A stretch of DNA of 13,048 nucleotides from Thermoflexales bacterium. Its GTDB lineage: Bacteria; Chloroflexota; Anaerolineae; B4-G1; SLSP01. The stretch is from positions 1 to 13,048 of the forward strand of contig SLSP01000316.1 of the NCBI GenBank assembly GCA_007130345.1, in the 5' to 3' direction. Positions 5,320 to 13,048 of the stretch are shown here, piece by piece; within the stretch, counting starts at the first letter, position 1, and each line of letters begins with the position of its first letter. A program made the position numbers and the translations under genes. The notes beneath the pieces were generated by a model. It saw nothing but the letters and a program-made list of their open reading frames with translations. It made no database searches and was not told where the DNA came from.

Positions 5320-5348
5320 AGTATGGACGCGGGGCGTCCGTTGGTTTA

Positions 5349-5375
5349 CCCCCCGGACAAAGCCGGGGGGTTTTT
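5349..5375 (+). terminator. Rho-independent terminator downstream of pfk, lying between convergent genes
   Basis: CCCCCCGG (5349-5356), loop ACAAAG, CCGGGGGG (5363-5370), then TTTTT (5371-5375). It is 30 nt after the pfk stop and about 12 nt beyond the stop of the minus-strand gene. An A-tract (GAAAAA) on the other side would give partial bidirectionality. Confidence 0.8.
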
Positions 5376-5386
5376 CATGCGGACGT

Positions 5387-8005
<2,619 letters not shown>

Positions 8006-8018
8006 CAATTTCGAGCTT

Positions 8019-8057
8019 GAGACTTCCGAAGTCTAAACAGCAGACTTCGGAAGTCTC
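8019..8057. repeat. REP-like nested palindrome: GAGACTTCCGAAGTCT, loop aaacagc, AGACTTCGGAAGTCTC
   Basis: Perfect 16-bp inverted repeat. Each arm is itself a 7-1-7 near-palindrome (AGACTTC C GAAGTCT). It lies 12 nt downstream of the tkt stop and about 10 nt upstream of the DUF2723 start codon. No U-tract follows it. The same element recurs at 11947-11983 and in degenerate form at 10181-10250. Confidence 0.75.
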
Positions 8058-8069
8058 AGGTCGTAGAAT

Positions 8070-10073
8070 TTACTCCGCCATCAACTCGAGGGCGCGGCGG
8101 ACGATGTGCTCGGCGGTGAAGCCGAACTCTTGCTTGAGGCGCTGGTAGGGGGCCGAGGCCCCGAAGCGGTCGATGCCGATGACATCGCCGGATTTGCCGA
8201 CGTAGCGTTCCCAACCCAGGGTGACGCCGGCCTCGATAGACAGGCGCTTGAGCACGCCTTCGGGCAGGACGCTGAGTTTGTAGAAGAGCGGCTGCTGCTC
8301 GAAGAGTTCCCAACTGGGCATACTCACCACGCGCGCGCCCACCCGCCGTTCCATGAGCAGCTTCTGCGCTTCGAGGGCGTCGGCGACTTCGGAACCGGTG
8401 GCGATGAGAAGCAGGTCGATGCGGTCGATGGGCGACTCGCTGAGGACGTAGGCCCCGCGTGCCACGCCGTCGCGGGCTTTCTCGGCGGTCTCCGGCATAA
8501 TCGGTAGGTTTTGCCGGGTGAGGATGAGGGCGGTGGGGCCAGCGTGTTCCAGCGCGATCTGCCACGCGGCAGCGGTCTCGTTGGCGTCGGCAGGGCGCAG
8601 GACGAGCAGGCCGGGGATGGCGCGGAGCGACATCACATGCTCGACGGGTTCGTGCGTGGGGCCGTCCTCGCCCACGAAGATGGAGTCGTGCGTCCACACG
8701 TAGACCACGGGCAGCTTCATCAGCGCGGCGAGGCGCACGGACGGGCGCATGTAATCGGAGAAGACGAGGAACGTGCCGCCGTAGGGCCGCGCGCCGCCAT
8801 AGAGCGCCATCCCGTTGAGCAGGCCGCCCATCGCGTGCTCGCGCACGCCGAAGCGCAGGTTGCGCCCGGCATAGCTGCCCGCCTGGAACTCGCCCGGGCC
8901 GTTCATAAACGTCTTGTTGGAGGGGTCAAGGTCGGCGGAACCGCCGATGAGTTCGGGGAGGGCGGGGGCCAGCGCATTGATGACCTTGCCGGAGGCGGCG
9001 CGGGTCGCCATCACGCCAGTGTCGGGGGCGAAGCGCGGGAGGGCTGTCTCCCAGTTGGCGGGTAGTGTCCCCTTGAGCCGCCGCTGCAATTCGGCGGCCT
9101 CCTCCGGGAAGGCGGTCTCGTAGCGGGAGAGCAGGTCGCGCCATTTGGCCTCGGCGCGCTCGCCCTGGGGCGCGGCCAGCCGGTAGTGGGCCAGCACGTC
9201 ATCCGGCACAAAGAACGGTTCGTGCGAGGGCCAGTTGAGCGCGTCTTTGGTCAGGCGGATCTCCTCCGCGCCGAGGGGCGAGCCGTGCGCGTCCGCCGTC
9301 CCCTGCTTGTTGGGGCTGCCGTAGGCGATGTGCGTCCGGCAGACGATGAGATGCGGCTGACCGGGGGCGGCTTTCGCCTGCCGGATCGCGCCGTCGATGG
9401 CATCCACGTCGTGGCCGTCGATCTCCTGAACGTGCCAGCCGTAGGCGCGGAAGCGGGCGGGGACATCCTCGGTGAAGGTGATGGCGGTAGCGCCCTCGAT
9501 AGTGATGCGGTTATCATCGTAGAAGTAGATGAGGTTGTCGAGCTTCAGATGCCCGGCGATGGAGGCGGCCTCCTGCGAGACGCCCTCCATCAAGTCGCCG
9601 TCGGAGACGATGGCGTAGATGACGTGGTCGAGCAGGGCGTGGTCGGGGCGGTTGAAGCGGGCGGCCATGTGGCGCTGCGCAATCGCCATCCCCACGCCGT
9701 TGGCGAAGCCCTGGCCGAGCGGGCCGGTGGTCGTCTCGATGCCCAGGTCGGGGTCGTGTTCCGGGTGGCCGGGCGTGCGGCTCTCCCACTGGCGGAACTG
9801 CTTGAGGTCGCTCATCAGCAGCGGATAGCCGGTGAGATAGAGCAGGCTGTAGAGCAGGGCCGAGCCGTGTCCGGCGGAGAGGATGAAGCGGTCGCGGTTG
9901 GCCCAGGTGGGATTCTTGGGATTGTGCTTCAGGTGGCGCGTCCACAGGACGTAGGCCACGTCGGCCATCCCCATCGGCAGGCCGGGGTGGCCGGAGTTGG
10001 CTTGCTGCACGGTGTCCATAGCGAGGACGCGCAGGGCGTTGATGCACCGTTGGTCGAGATCGGTTTTGGGCAT
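8070..10073 (-). CDS. tkt: Transketolase
   Basis: 667 aa. Transketolase N-terminus with SGHPG, the ThDP/metal motif [13 protein letters not shown], and full-length collinear similarity to bacterial Tkt. AAGGAGA Shine-Dalgarno 7 nt upstream of the ATG (10071-10073 reverse complement). Confidence 0.95.
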
Positions 10074-10103
10074 AGAGGTCTCCTTTTTGGGTAAATGGGT
10101 GCC

Positions 10104-10134
10104 GATTATGGTATGTCAAAGGCGTGAAAAGTCA
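10104..10134 (-). promoter_or_regulatory. Candidate sigma70-type promoter for tkt: TTGACT with TACCAT at 16 nt spacing or CATAAT at 19 nt spacing
   Basis: Minus strand reads gcgTTGACTtttcacgcctttgacaTACCATAATcgg. This is about 30 nt upstream of the tkt start, so the 5' UTR would be short. The spacing is suboptimal for either -10 choice. Confidence 0.35.
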
Positions 10135-10142
10135 ACGCGGGG

Positions 10143-10171
10143 TTGCATGGCGCGCGGGGGCGTGTTACAAT
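10143..10171 (+). promoter_or_regulatory. Near-consensus sigma70-type promoter: TTGCAT, 17-nt spacer, TACAAT. It faces the small low-GC cassette.
   Basis: TTGCAT at 10143-10148, a 17-nt spacer, TACAAT at 10166-10171. The predicted TSS is near 10178, giving a leader of about 133 nt that contains the degenerate REP-like copy. Confidence 0.45.
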
Positions 10172-10180
10172 CGAGGTATA

Positions 10181-10250
10181 CGGGCTTCCGAAGTCTTACA
10201 GAAAGCGTGCTAAATTTTGGGGCCTCTCAAAGACCTCGGAAGTCTACCCG
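10181..10250. repeat. Degenerate split copy of the REP-like element (cgggCTTCCGAAGTCT, 34-nt spacer, AGACcTCGGAAGTCTacccg) inside the predicted 5' leader of the cassette
   Basis: It shares the CGAAGTCT / CGGAAGTCT half-arms and the CGGG..CCCG outer pairing. There is one mismatch and a long spacer compared with the two intact copies. Confidence 0.5.
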
Positions 10251-10311
10251 ATTTCTTGAGAAGATACGAGGGTCACTTATTTTGACGGGTTTTCGAAGGG
10301 GGGGACTTTGT

Positions 10312-10641
10312 ATGAACACCACAGTGACAATGATAATTGAACCGTTCGTTCGGCGTGGGTTGTTTGCCAGTCCTGAGCAGGCTGTAACGGAAATGGCTCG
10401 TGATTATGTGTTGCGGCAAATTGAGCATCATCAGGCTATCGTTCAAAAACTACAAACCCGCTATGGAATGACTTATGAACAATTTGAGGATTACCTTCGC
10501 GCGCGTTCTGAGACTTTGCAAGCCGTCCCTGATCCGGCGCTCAACCTAGCGGTGATGGCGGAAGAGGACGACGCCCTAGATTGGAAAATTGCCCGCGAGA
10601 TGCTGCGAAGCTGGCTAGGATTGCAAATTGAGCCGGTATGA
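10312..10641 (+). CDS. Small hypothetical protein (109 aa), first gene of a low-GC two-gene cassette. Possibly an antitoxin-like helical protein, but no confident family.
   Basis: ATG at 10312 with AAGGGGG about 9 nt upstream. Roughly 47% GC against about 67% in the flanks. The acidic C-terminus reads MAEEDDALDWKIAREMLRSW. Its stop overlaps the next start (ATGA at 10638-10641). The ORF from 9997 in the track is an upstream extension through the promoter region and was rejected. Confidence 0.55.
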   Translation: MNTTVTMIIEPFVRRGLFASPEQAVTEMARDYVLRQIEHHQAIVQKLQTRYGMTYEQFEDYLRARSETLQAVPDPALNLAVMAEEDDALDWKIAREMLRSWLGLQIEPV

Positions 10642-11015
10642 ACACGCTTGCCCGCTTATTGAACCAGGTGGTCAGTGCGTTACAAACCTGGCCTGGCTGT
10701 GTGAATGTGCGTGTTTTGGAAACCCAACAGTTTTCTGATGTGCAATTTGCGCTTAAAGTGCGTGCTGAGACACATTCAGGGGCGACTTTACATGTGCGCT
10801 TGTATCAAAATCGTCAACATATTGATTACGCTTACCATTTGATCCACGAGCAATGCTCACTGCGTTGGGACAACAAAGAGCATTTTCCTACACTTTCGAC
10901 ATATCCCCATCATTTTCATACCGCTTCCGGTGAAGTGCAAGCTTCGCCGTTGACGGGCGATCCAAATCACGATTTACCTCTGGTATTGCGCTTGATTTCT
11001 AAAATCATTGATTGA
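10638..11015 (+). CDS. Small hypothetical protein (125 aa), second gene of the low-GC cassette. His-rich motif YPHHFHTASGE. Toxin-like partner is only a guess.
   Basis: ATG overlaps the upstream stop by 4 nt. Low GC, with an AT-rich, codon-atypical reading frame relative to the host. A strong hairpin follows downstream. Confidence 0.55.
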   Translation: MNTLARLLNQVVSALQTWPGCVNVRVLETQQFSDVQFALKVRAETHSGATLHVRLYQNRQHIDYAYHLIHEQCSLRWDNKEHFPTLSTYPHHFHTASGEVQASPLTGDPNHDLPLVLRLISKIID

Positions 11016-11051
11016 TGGCTGTTAAACCCCGCCAAAAGCGTTGCTCTCACA

Positions 11052-11089
11052 CAAACCCGCGCCAGGCTGCGTGACCTGGCGCGGGTTTG
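11052..11089. terminator. Bidirectional hairpin between convergent genes: CAAACCCGCGCCAGG, loop ctgcgtga, CCTGGCGCGGGTTTG
   Basis: Perfect 15-bp inverted repeat. The stem bases are AAA/TTT, which gives short T-rich stretches on both strands. It lies 37 nt after the cassette stop and 26 nt after the SDR stop. Confidence 0.55.
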
Positions 11090-11114
11090 CGTTGGGTGGA
11101 GTTATTACGCTTTT

Positions 11115-11918
11115 CTACCCCACCCCAATCGCCGCTTCCCCGCCATCCACCGGGATGACGTCGCCGGAAATCCACGCGACGCGCGGATCGGCCAGGGCGA
11201 CGATGACCTGGGCCACGTCCTCCGGCGTGGTGAGGCGGCCGGCAGGATGGTGCGTCTGCACGGCGGCGAGGATGGCTTCGTGGCCGGGGATGGCGCGCAG
11301 GGCGGGGGTGTCGCACACGCCGGGCCGCAGGCAGTTGACGGCGATGCCGCGCGGCGCGAGTTCCAGCGCGAGTTGGCGCGCGTGCGCCTCGAGCGCGGCC
11401 TTCGCCGCCGAGACCGCGCCGTAGTTGGCGGTCGCCCGCTCCGCGCCCAGGCTGCTCAGGGCGTAGATGCGGCTCCCGCGCGCGAGCAGCCCGGCGTGCG
11501 TCAAATCCTGGCTCCAGTAGACGAGGCTGTGGGCCATCACGCGCAGGGTCATGTCCATTTGTTCCTCGGAGAGGGCTTTTTCTGCGGGATCATCTGCAAT
11601 GTAGGGGCGCAGGCTGCCGAAGGCCAGCGAGTGGACGAGCAAGTGGAGGGGGGTGTCGCCGAGCGCCTCCGGGAGCGCGGCGATGACACGGGCGCGGCGT
11701 CGGGCGTCGGCGGCGTTGGTGTTGAAGAAGACGGCGCGCCGGCCGGCGGCCTCCACGTCGGCGATGACGGCCTCGGCCTGCGCGATGCTGCGGCGCGGGT
11801 CGAGGTGGACGCCGCAGATGTGCATCCCGGCGGCGGCCAGCGCGCGCGCTATCGCCGCGCCGAACCCGCTCGACGCGCCGAGGATCAAGGCCCAACGGTT
11901 TTCCAGGGATGGGGACAT
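11115..11918 (-). CDS. SDR-family oxidoreductase, enoyl-ACP reductase-like (FabI/FabL-type Tyr-x6-Lys)
   Basis: Rossmann N-terminus ALILGASSGFGAAIARALAAAG. The catalytic region YGAVSAAKAALEAH resembles the FabI Y-x6-K block (YNVMGVAKAALE). AGGAGG Shine-Dalgarno 5-6 nt before the ATG (reverse complement of 11916-11918). Confidence 0.7.
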   Translation of the reverse strand: MSPSLENRWALILGASSGFGAAIARALAAAGMHICGVHLDPRRSIAQAEAVIADVEAAGRRAVFFNTNAADARRRARVIAALPEALGDTPLHLLVHSLAFGSLRPYIADDPAEKALSEEQMDMTLRVMAHSLVYWSQDLTHAGLLARGSRIYALSSLGAERATANYGAVSAAKAALEAHARQLALELAPRGIAVNCLRPGVCDTPALRAIPGHEAILAAVQTHHPAGRLTTPEDVAQVIVALADPRVAWISGDVIPVDGGEAAIGVG

Positions 11919-11946
11919 AGGAACCTCCTAAAAATTGGGGAAAAGT

Positions 11947-11983
11947 CCAGACTTCCGAAGTCTTCAAGACTTCGGAAGTCTGG
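11947..11983. repeat. REP-like nested palindrome, second intact copy: CCAGACTTCCGAAGTCT, loop tca, AGACTTCGGAAGTCTGG
   Basis: Perfect 17-bp stem with a 3-nt loop. It sits between the stop of the SPFH gene (11990) and the start of the SDR gene (11918). Its arms are identical to the copy at 8019-8057. Confidence 0.75.
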
Positions 11984-11989
11984 AACGTT

Positions 11990-13048
11990 CTACGCTTCTG
12001 ACTTGCCCGTGACCGCGCCGAGGAGTCCGTTGGCCGTCCCGAAGAGGTTGATGGGGCTGTGGCCGTCGGTGATGAGGATGCTTTGCAGGCCCAGGCCGCC
12101 GAGCAGCTTCGCTTGGAGTTCCGGCCCGGCCAGGGCGATGGCCCGGAGGGTGTCCGGCCCGATGGCGGCGATGCGCTCTTTGAACTCGGCCATCGTGATC
12201 TCGGCCATCTGCTCGGCTTTGGCGACGTCCATCTCGTTGAGGGCGCGCTGATGGGTCAGTTCGGCCTCCTGCTGCTCGCGCAGGTAGGCCAGTTCGGTCT
12301 CCTGCTTGACGCGCTGCGCTTCGGCCTCCTGCCGCGCCAGCGTGACGGCGGCCTCGCCTTTGATGCGCTCGGCTTCGGCGCGGGCGCGGGCCTCGGCGGT
12401 CGCCTCGCCCGTCGCGGTGATGGCGGCGTTCTCGGCCTCCAGCTCGATCAGCTTTTTGCGCTCGGCCTCGGCGGCGCGCTTGTCCACAATCCCCTGGCGC
12501 TCCAACTTGGCGCGGGCCTCTTGCGCGATGCGCTCCGCGTCGTGGCGGGCGGCGGCCTCCTGCGCGTCGGTCGTGATCTTGATGGCGATCTGCACCGATT
12601 TTTGCAGGCTCTTCAGCGTCTCCTCGTCAATTGGCTCCACCGATTGGATGTCAATGTTGGTGATGACTAGGTGGTTGGTCGAGAAGCGGAAGTCGTCGCC
12701 GACGTGGCCCTTATCGTCGGCGCCGAAGACGGCAGCGCGGATGATTTTGGCCGAGTTGCGGTGGAATTCCTCGAAGCGCGAGCCGGCCACCGCGCCGCGC
12801 ACGCGGGAGGCGACGGCCTTGCACGCATCGCCGACGAAGTCGGGGGCCTGGAACAGGCGGGCGGCGGCCTCCGGGTCATCCTTATCCACATCGAAGTACC
12901 AGTTGTAGGAAAGCTGCAACTGCAAGCGGGCGTGGTCGGCGGTCTCGACGGTGAAGATGTCGGTCATAAAGTCCGGGCCGAGCAGCAGCGCGAGCGATTT
13001 GATGAGGTTGGGCTGCTTGGGCTTGCCGCCGGAGAGGCTGAGGACGGT
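11990..13048 (-). CDS. SPFH/band-7 domain protein, flotillin-like (YqiK/FloT type). It is partial: the 5' end lies beyond the window.
   Basis: The reading frame stays open to the window edge upstream of the listed Met. The end of the SPFH domain (..HLVITNIDIQSVEPIDEETLKSLQKSVQIAIKITTDAQEAAARHDAERIAQEARA) is followed by an EA/R/K-rich coiled-coil region (AEAERKKLIELEAENAA.., AEAQRVKQETELAYLREQQEAEL) and a Gly-rich C-terminus, as is typical of flotillins. Confidence 0.75.
   Translation of the reverse strand, partial: TVLSLSGGKPKQPNLIKSLALLLGPDFMTDIFTVETADHARLQLQLSYNWYFDVDKDDPEAAARLFQAPDFVGDACKAVASRVRGAVAGSRFEEFHRNSAKIIRAAVFGADDKGHVGDDFRFSTNHLVITNIDIQSVEPIDEETLKSLQKSVQIAIKITTDAQEAAARHDAERIAQEARAKLERQGIVDKRAAEAERKKLIELEAENAAITATGEATAEARARAEAERIKGEAAVTLARQEAEAQRVKQETELAYLREQQEAELTHQRALNEMDVAKAEQMAEITMAEFKERIAAIGPDTLRAIALAGPELQAKLLGGLGLQSILITDGHSPINLFGTANGLLGAVTGKSEA

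Follow-up and report, generated by a model that had tools for sequence, protein, structure and literature searches.

Repetitive extragenic palindromes (REPs) and their transposase partners have been worked out almost entirely in Proteobacteria, with a GTAG foot and one lineage per family; REP elements with such partners are reportedly treated by Nunvar 2010 and Ton-Hoang 2012. The closest described systems combine REPs, bacterial interspersed mosaic elements (BIMEs) or REP doublets forming hairpins (REPINs) with a REP-associated tyrosine transposase (RAYT, TnpA_REP) in E. coli, Pseudomonas and Stenotrophomonas (Bertels & Rainey 2011, PMC3116915; Corneloup 2021, PMC8266576). According to the established model, the RAYT binds the repeat where it is folded within single-stranded DNA, then cutting and rejoining the DNA next to it (PMC8266576, PMC3116915). 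The unpaired GTAG/CGTC foot has been used to catalogue REP super-families, i.e., it defines super-families and not REPs as such (PMC3733652). The RAYTs that were characterised in vitro need this foot, among them those whose REPs are perfect palindromes (PMC8266576). Here, we analyse a family of nested palindromes found in a stretch of 13,048 nt from a Thermoflexales bacterium of the Anaerolineae (contig SLSP01000316.1); the whole stretch is referred to as the window in the following. With a probability of roughly 0.85, we consider these hairpins to be a REP-type non-autonomous repeat partnered with a RAYT.

As in REP/REPIN-RAYT systems, the repeats of this family are short, palindromic, dispersed and mostly extragenic, and inverted doublets fold into one hairpin. 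They flank a RAYT gene and co-vary with it, they come without target duplication, and occasional copies lie in frame inside genes, including the RAYT gene itself. That is, the family shares all tested defining features of REP/RAYT systems but the foot. In contrast to the described systems, it has neither a GTAG/GT[AG]G nor a CGTC foot, its perfect 15-bp stem is without bulge, the whole doublet measures only 33 nt, the arm ends are strictly A...T, and the 5' arm has C or A at its centre. Its hosts are Chloroflexota, Planctomycetota and others, not Proteobacteria, and while REPINs are described as passed on vertically and mostly specific to one lineage, this family has an allele that does not differ between phyla. 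The element is thus of a known kind; what sets it apart is mainly its unusual symmetric architecture, its apparent link to a supposedly repeat-less RAYT group and its cross-phylum identity.

Copies in the window were identified by searching all 13 kb for the arm AGACTTCNGAAGTCT with at most 3 mismatches, using 200 shuffles as control. The search returned six matches in total (4 perfect, 2 degenerate), compared to 0.18 expected in the shuffled window; six matches were reached in 0/200 shuffles. This confirms what the initial annotation had claimed, i.e., three copies built from AGACTTC-C/G-GAAGTCT, two intact and one degenerate. The first intact doublet, a compact REPIN (8018 to 8058, no strand assigned), has the arms AGACTTCCGAAGTCT (8020-8034) and AGACTTCGGAAGTCT (8042-8056), which a TG/CA extension prolongs to a 17-bp stem (8018-8034/8042-8058) around the 7-nt loop AAACAGC. 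The second intact doublet (11946 to 11984, again no strand) shows the canonical family form with arms at 11949-11963 and 11967-11981, a TCC/GGA extension to an 18-bp stem (11946-11963/11967-11984) and the 3-nt loop TCA. The arms of the intact copies are hence 3-7 nt apart as annotated, and the annotated perfect hairpin of 16-17 bp was essentially right, the measured stems being 17 and 18 bp long. Both intact pairs have the centre base C in the first arm and G in the second, which makes the arms exact reverse complements. The third copy is a decayed pair with a long spacer (10182 to 10245, no strand), where 34 nt separate the arms GGGCTTCCGAAGTCT (10182-10196, 2 mismatches) and AGACCTCGGAAGTCT (10231-10245, 1 mismatch).

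RNA folding, which had been proposed as a check, yields strong stems for both intact hairpins, with -33 to -36 kcal/mol for each of the two strands and a z of about -7, while the decayed pair folds much weaker (-31 to -34 kcal/mol, z about -3 to -3.7). The units of 33-37 nt with perfect stems of 15-18 bp are thus short palindromic repeats able to form a hairpin, as is typical for REPs. An Rfam search of the window at E<=1 returned a chance miRNA-like match on the hairpin and nothing else relevant.

A search for RAYT genes, also suggested beforehand, revealed hairpin-bracketed open reading frames (ORFs) that encode IS200-like Y1 enzymes, i.e., RAYTs, in five other genomes (loci L151, L313, L314, L315 and L112). 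The RAYT ORF of L151 (4975-5571, minus strand), from a metagenome-assembled genome (MAG) of Planctomycetaceae, is preceded by the hairpin at a distance of 27 nt and followed by it after 18 nt. This ORF matches Pfam Y1_Tnp (PF01797, E 8e-7) as well as the NCBIfam model NF047646 'REP-associated tyrosine transposase' (E 4e-22; 78.6 bits, i.e., just under the curated 80-bit cutoff). The RAYT of L112 (3881-4486, minus strand; Anaerolineales MAG) matches NF047646 with E 1.5e-14, its protein is 42% identical to that of L151, and at this locus the canonical hairpin is mixed with an AGACCTC variant hairpin. In L313 (RAYT about 70% identical), canonical hairpins are located 24 nt upstream and 27 nt downstream with two more nearby, and in L315 (Chloroflexi-labelled, 55% identical) one is located 30 nt upstream. 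The canonical hairpin just upstream of the L314 RAYT lies inside a 44-bp perfect palindrome (5895-5985, 91 nt overall) and forms its centre. The RAYT family comprises >6000 homologues, many of them named 'REP element-mobilizing transposase RayT' by JGI. The only solved structure matched by the clade profile is PDB 4ER8 (E. coli TnpA_REP), with aligning HUH, Y..NP and DW.FS motifs. That is, in other genomes the repeat flanks genes for HUH/Y1 enzymes of RAYT type. Together with dispersal and RAYT-hairpin co-variation, this flanking supports the initial idea of REP/BIME-type extragenic palindromes.

The ends of IS200/IS605 insertion sequences and their derivatives (palindrome-associated transposable elements, PATEs, and miniature inverted-repeat transposable elements, MITEs) are similar in that an HUH Y1 enzyme recognises single-stranded hairpins without target duplication. 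However, IS200/IS605 elements have different, imperfect left and right hairpins, a multi-copy transposase and a Y...Q motif, whereas the same perfect hairpin is found on both sides here and the enzyme has the RAYT motif Y...NP and matches NF047646 and 4ER8.

The RAYT clade shows the motifs NHYH, WE..SS and Y[I/L]H[L/A]NP in proteins of about 190-210 aa. It resembles RAYT subclass 2.1 (Quentin et al. 2018, PMC6006769), which equals Group 1 (Bertels et al. 2017, PMC5581495) and TIRYT/TIRtron (Di Nocera et al. 2013, PMC3733652). This subclass is characterised by the signatures NH[YF]H, W[EQ] and Y[IV]HLNP (PMC6006769), and its proteins have a mean length of 238 aa. In these papers (PMC6006769, PMC5581495, PMC3733652), no REP-like neighbours were found for its genes, only long terminal inverted repeats with GGGG[AT][CG]A[CG], the flanking 16-mers are of low abundance with about 12 per replicon, and only RAYT Groups 2 and 3 were judged to be REP-associated. 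Our clade fits in its motifs, on which alone the putative membership is based, as well as in the identical inverted sequences on both sides of the gene. It differs in that the flanks are short hairpins that are also dispersed genome-wide and in its shorter proteins. Since subclass 2.1/Group 1 is reported to be REP-less, the link between RAYT and hairpin is new rather than textbook knowledge.

On a wider basis, we studied 80 metagenomic loci encoding relatives of the hairpin-linked RAYT. Many of these about 80 relatives have a perfect hairpin on either side that follows the same design (15-bp stem, 3-nt loop, A...T arms, nested palindromy) with a different sequence, e.g., AGAAACCAGGTTTCT, AACCTTGCGAAGGTT, AGGTGCGACGCACCT, AAACTTACGAAGTTT and AGACCTCCGAGGTCT. 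Protein clusters match the hairpin type (e.g., AGACTTC, AGACCTC, AGAAACC, AACCTTG, AGGTGCG), i.e., the protein clustering shows the co-evolution of RAYT and repeat known from REP systems. Over 24 arm types, A is invariant at position 1 and T at position 15, position 14 is a pyrimidine throughout, and 22/24 have C or A in the centre of the 5' arm. For 30 hairpin types, the pairs of the intra-arm dyad are formed in 86% of the cells compared to 54.7% when shuffled (0/500 as high), with a covariation score of 0.81 vs. 0.20 and slid controls at 35-54%; here, the second arm mirrors the first by construction such that only seven pairs are independent. The dyad symmetry is thus not peculiar to the AGACTTC allele. 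We discarded the idea that nested palindromy allows both strands to present the same hairpin, which any perfect inverted repeat already does. A further locus (L316, 4577-7855) shows another hairpin type, AGAAACCCGTTTTCT, after three consecutive genes (RAYT, DNA methylase, Mrr-like), a setting that looks like a BREX-type defence island.

A dyad kept by covariation would also be expected from tandem operators, i.e., from sites where a dimeric DNA-binding protein (transcription factor or nucleoid protein) reads duplex AGACTTC-N-GAAGTCT. Each arm is indeed a perfect 7+1+7 dyad, and extra half-sites adjoin some copies in phages. But the centre flips from C to G between the arms, arm-arm complementarity is kept even where intra-arm symmetry is lost, and operators have no need for the compensatory arm-arm changes reported below. 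Furthermore, copies are located past or inside genes and not at promoters, the RAYT is the sole gene that consistently adjoins the hairpins, and the family is absent from close relatives. The hairpins are thus not primarily operators, an explanation to which we assign only a very small probability, and the undescribed dimeric protein considered initially is not needed; a host protein may additionally bind the hairpins.

Dispersal of the RAYT-linked repeat was assessed by scanning one genome per species for the pattern AGACTTCCGAAGTCT-N(1-30)-AGACTTCGGAAGTCT. Respective totals are lower bounds, gene contexts stem from a simple ORF caller, and taxon labels are those of the MAG submitters. The 15+15-nt core is found exactly in at least 120 genome stretches from many independent MAGs, so the motif is not confined to the window. 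Hosts belong to Chloroflexota (Anaerolineae, Thermoflexus, Caldilinea, Chloroflexia, Ardenticatenaceae, Brevefilum) and Planctomycetota (Gemmataceae, Planctomycetaceae, Pirellulales, Schlesneria), complemented by Ignavibacteria/Kapaibacterium, Armatimonadota and Moduliflexus MAGs. Stretches with the identical 30-nt stem span 33-71% GC, and mis-binning is ruled out since several matches are on contigs of 0.4-10 Mb. Among the matches listed, there are 130 perfect copies (128 in 120 genome stretches and 2 in the window) besides about 35 imperfect pairs. At least 17 stretches are from a single MAG (CAZOAL01), and the window organism has 3 copies within 18.5 kb. Based on the crude ORF calls, about two thirds of the copies are intergenic and about one third inside ORFs. 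That is, many copies are found, mostly extragenic and with unrelated flanks, as in REP systems.

Over-long ORFs account for some of the copies within ORFs as artefacts, yet several copies are genuinely inserted in frame (33 nt = 11 codons), namely in a MetH homocysteine methyltransferase domain (L142), in GcvP (L115) and in an HsdR linker (L179). The L112 RAYT gene itself contains an in-frame variant hairpin that encodes ..TSEVFKTSEV.... Intragenic REPs are known, including REPs within RAYT genes (PMC3733652, PMC6006769).

In viral contigs, a single-arm scan detected numerous instances of the C-then-G doublet, with arm starts 18 nt apart, in a few contigs. One of them, L090, is a genuine tailed-phage module since it encodes a tape-measure protein and a head-tail adaptor. 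We rejected phages as RAYT carriers: only 1 in 2.9 million viral contigs encodes a relative (35% identity), for which reason the phage copies are passengers. Hairpins in the phage contigs L017 (4494-4533), L026 (3419-3450) and L052 (40-78) are bordered by short tandem partial arms, e.g., GACGACCAGACTTC x3, which could be due to slippage or nested partial insertions. A further viral contig of 35% GC (L094, IMGVR_UViG_3300031853_000242) contains the different palindrome AGACTT-N3-AAGTCT in about 20 copies spaced by roughly 500 bp, which looks like an unrelated gene-junction hairpin system. BLAST searches with the 33-mer gave no match in PLSDB plasmids and only a chance partial match in a microvirus capsid gene in INPHARED phages. 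Literature searches for the exact DNA/RNA sequence and shorter cores yielded unrelated primer matches only, and those for RAYT/REPIN in the host phyla nothing relevant.

The unit itself is sharply bounded. Among the matches listed and the window, the loop has 3 nt in 94/130 perfect copies and 4 nt in 24/130. Loop sequences vary, even within one MAG, and the stem is not systematically extended beyond the core. Over 230 flanks, the neighbouring sequence is unrelated save for a C at position -1 in 53%. Three-nt loops have A as first base in 0/91 and T as last base in 1/91 cases, and four-nt loops are mostly NCGN; this bias and the C at -1 may reflect how the RAYT prefers to cleave or join DNA. 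In the same loci, further non-ascertained copies are frequently imperfect, yet their arms change together. Such compensatory arm-arm changes are seen in, e.g., L108, L113, L120, L130, L137, L191 and L199, with the pairs AAACATCGGAAGTCT/AGACTTCCGATGTTT, AGACCTCCGAAGTCT/AGACTTCGGAGGTCT and AGACTTCCGAAGTTT/AAACTTCGGAAGTCT as examples. In a few copies, all four half-sites are altered in step, e.g., AGACCTCCGAGGTCT tta AGACCTCGGAGGTCT.

Across 115 copies, we found no target-site duplications of 2-8 bp beyond chance (observed 4, 0, 2, 0, 0, 0, 0). This and the sharp unit boundaries fit the cut-and-rejoin model of RAYTs, and, given the unrelated flanks, the repeat is not part of a longer insertion sequence or MITE end, as had been considered initially. 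The lack of duplications also speaks against solo terminal inverted repeats, i.e., MITEs left or mobilised by a conventional DDE-type insertion sequence. The inverted 15-mers do look like a terminal repeat pair that has lost its cargo, other genomes have versions whose arms are 33-85 nt apart, and the element is polymorphic in presence and absence. However, there is no conserved internal sequence, loops differing within one genome, the genes between hairpins are HUH Y1 enzymes and not DDE transposases, and either side of the RAYT gene bears a complete hairpin, not one half of a hairpin split into left and right ends. The hairpins are not a DDE-type MITE, an origin that we regard as highly improbable. 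The copies with spacers of 33-85 nt as well as the window's 34-nt-spacer copy resemble conventional, longer doublets.

Two further arrangements were observed. In an Ignavibacteria MAG (L144, 2868-3050), arms centred on G and on C take turns at 42-nt intervals, separated by two alternating 27-nt spacers, which makes a tandem 84-nt unit and not a compact hairpin. In Planctomycetota MAGs (L113, L120, L122, L155), a second hairpin CCACGTTC-TGGC-GAACGTGG recurs 10-20 nt from the REP hairpin, which suggests composite, BIME-like units.

All three copies of the window are located between genes. The copy 8018-8058 lies between transketolase (tkt; 8070-10073, minus strand, stop 8070, start 10073) and a TMEM260-like/DUF2723 gene (about 5387-8005, minus strand, ATG at 8005). 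The nearest named relatives are Anaerolineae, and contigs of GCA_003562415.1 and GCA_007119705.1 encode a protein that matches the window's transketolase with 100% identity. Four independent assemblies of this organism have the identical hairpin and, like the window, a tkt-TMEM260 gap of 64 nt. A relative with a 92% identical transketolase has a gap of 9 nt and three further relatives (77-78% identical) have gaps of 3, 2 and 20 nt, all without the hairpin. Alignment with the 92% relative reveals a 55-nt block unique to the window lineage, which comprises the hairpin plus 11 and 4 nt on its sides. Since the gene pair is almost abutting in the relatives without hairpin, the block is an insertion into an ancestrally almost abutting gene pair. 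In about 79 kb from the four relatives, neither an AGACTTC arm pair nor the hairpin is present; the sole match is an isolated 15-mer with 3 mismatches (L231). The family is thus patchily distributed even within this Anaerolineae group.

The copy 11946-11984 is found 5 nt past the stop codon (11990-11992) of a major-vault-protein-like gene, whose 3' part extends from 11990 to the window end at 13048 (minus strand). It ends 27 nt before the start (11918) of an SDR/FabI-like gene (11115-11918, minus strand), upstream of the clear AGGAGG site of the latter. Both intact hairpins are thus placed between same-strand genes, 5-13 nt past the upstream stop codon. The decayed copy lies upstream of tkt, in the divergent region that separates the start of this gene (10073, minus strand) from a low-GC island with a TumE-like toxin ORF.

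Placed like this, the hairpins could also be locally evolved RNA elements (terminators, attenuators or RNase III-type processing sites between cistrons) without any transposase link. Besides their position, the very stable RNA stems and the few U's that follow 11946-11984 on the transcribed strand, the hairpins of phage L090 located 18-31 nt past gene stops and the excess of convergent over divergent contexts (17 vs. 8, crude ORF calls) are in favour of this. As for terminators, intrinsic (Rho-independent) ones likewise have a stable stem-loop just past a stop codon, yet they combine a GC-rich stem with a direct U-tract, and neither intact copy has a proper one. On the transcribed strand, 8018-8058 is followed by CAAGCUCGAAAUUG and 11946-11984 by ACUUUUCC, the latter a short U-rich tail with four U's only. 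The initial statement that no copy is followed by a U-tract therefore strictly holds for 8018-8058 only and not for 11946-11984 with its weak U-rich ACUUUUCCCCAAUUUUU on the minus strand. A simple terminator scan of the window called neither intact copy. The window does have a canonical terminator-like site at 5348-5371 (plus strand) after a phosphofructokinase gene, where a 9-bp GC stem is followed by TTTTT; this is what ordinary terminators look like in this genome, and it is quite different from the hairpins. Furthermore, a local RNA element is not expected to share an identical stem across unrelated loci, several phyla and 33-71% GC, to flank RAYT genes and co-vary with them, to be inserted in frame within MetH, GcvP, the HsdR linker and a RAYT gene, or to be missing from the same tkt/TMEM260 junction in relatives. 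The hairpins are not a classical terminator, and local RNA elements in general are rather improbable, with about one chance in twenty.

With regard to expression, the initial annotation had placed the copy exactly on the Shine-Dalgarno position of the DUF2723 gene and suggested that it may occlude this site. Neither is supported: 12 nt remain between the end of the hairpin and the ATG at 8005, which places the hairpin beside the Shine-Dalgarno window, and because it ends there and contains no Shine-Dalgarno sequence, occlusion is not supported. No Shine-Dalgarno-like sequence is visible upstream of this ATG. REPs of E. coli can protect upstream mRNA or attenuate read-through. A stabilisation of the tkt message by the hairpin, which had been raised as well, is plausible by analogy, any effect on tkt or downstream expression being putative.

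Several observations weigh against a RAYT-partnered REP. Over the 230 flanks, we found no conserved unpaired 5' tetranucleotide foot (GTAG/GT[AG]G or CGTC). Using the RAYTs as queries, tblastn detects no RAYT in the window and its 18.5-kb contig. The clade to which the hairpins are linked resembles, by its motifs, subclass 2.1/Group 1, i.e., enzymes reported as not REP-associated. The AGACTTC allele shows 30/30 identity across phyla alongside RAYTs that are only 55-71% identical, which is unusual for REPs, normally lineage-specific. RAYT-driven mobility of this clade is putative, with insertion polymorphism and absent target duplications bearing on it indirectly. Finally, support for an RNA-level role is thin: G.U wobbles are on the transcribed strand in 3/3 informative cases, which are too few to count and not significant. 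Independent of the foot, a GTAG near both window copies was dismissed as coincidence, since one is the TAG stop of the vault-like gene, and the two lie at different distances from their copies and on different sides.

More tentatively, and with slightly less than even odds, the family may represent an uncatalogued REP/REPIN class. It would be defined by a 33-nt hairpin that lacks a foot, is palindromic on two levels (15-bp stem, 3-nt loop, A...T arms, covarying nested dyad) and co-evolves with a RAYT clade showing subclass 2.1/Group 1 motifs, and its allele AGACTTCCGAAGTCT would have spread at 30/30 identity among Chloroflexota, Planctomycetota, Ignavibacteria-type bacteria, Armatimonadota and phages.

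The mechanism we propose for the RAYT-partnered repeat is as follows. Each 15-nt arm is a small palindrome, in this reading a REP, and two inverted arms 3-4 nt apart form the 33-nt hairpin, in effect a very compact, minimal REPIN/BIME. A RAYT (TnpA_REP, HUH/Y1 endonuclease), usually single-copy and itself flanked by the same hairpins (REPtron), would recognise the repeat as folded single-stranded DNA and would cut and rejoin the DNA beside it, such that copies spread or persist without target duplication. We infer that such an enzyme exists and acts in the window's own genome and that the single-stranded-DNA mechanism applies to these hairpins. In the window lineage, one copy was inserted within a block of roughly 55 nt between tkt and the TMEM260-like gene, another is located just past the vault-protein-like gene, and a third has decayed. 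When transcribed, the 17-18-bp stem is most likely a passive 3' structure, i.e., a barrier to 3'-5' exonucleases and perhaps a partial terminator. The window hairpin is unlikely to be a dedicated regulator.

The same kind of repeat-RAYT partnership is thus present in Chloroflexota and Planctomycetota, with a much more compact hairpin that is symmetric throughout, and RAYTs of a supposedly repeat-less group may have repeats after all. That one repeat sequence is unchanged between phyla points to horizontal movement of the whole system, while the nested symmetry kept by covariation provides a testable clue to substrate recognition by this RAYT clade. For annotation, such hairpins are worth recognising in MAGs, as they break assemblies, sit in frame in genes and separate tightly coupled genes.

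Some further features of the window and its surroundings were observed. The gene directly upstream of the hairpin 11946-11984 is a bacterial homologue of the eukaryotic major vault protein; in L227 (3829-6468), where this gene is seen in full, it encodes a full-length protein (879 aa) with Vault repeats and the MVP shoulder domain. The decayed hairpin is at the edge of a low-GC island of roughly 1 kb (about 10100-11100; GC 0.50 vs. about 0.68 elsewhere). The island holds the TumE-like toxin ORF (10638-11015, plus strand) and, upstream of it, a 109-aa ORF (10312-10641, plus strand) without Pfam match; neither is called as a gene in public assemblies, and a toxin-antitoxin module may have been acquired here. 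Where the TumE-like ORF and the SDR gene converge, a hairpin unrelated to the family (CAAACCCGCGCCAGG, 11052-11089; perfect 15-bp stem, 8-nt loop) is possibly a bidirectional terminator.

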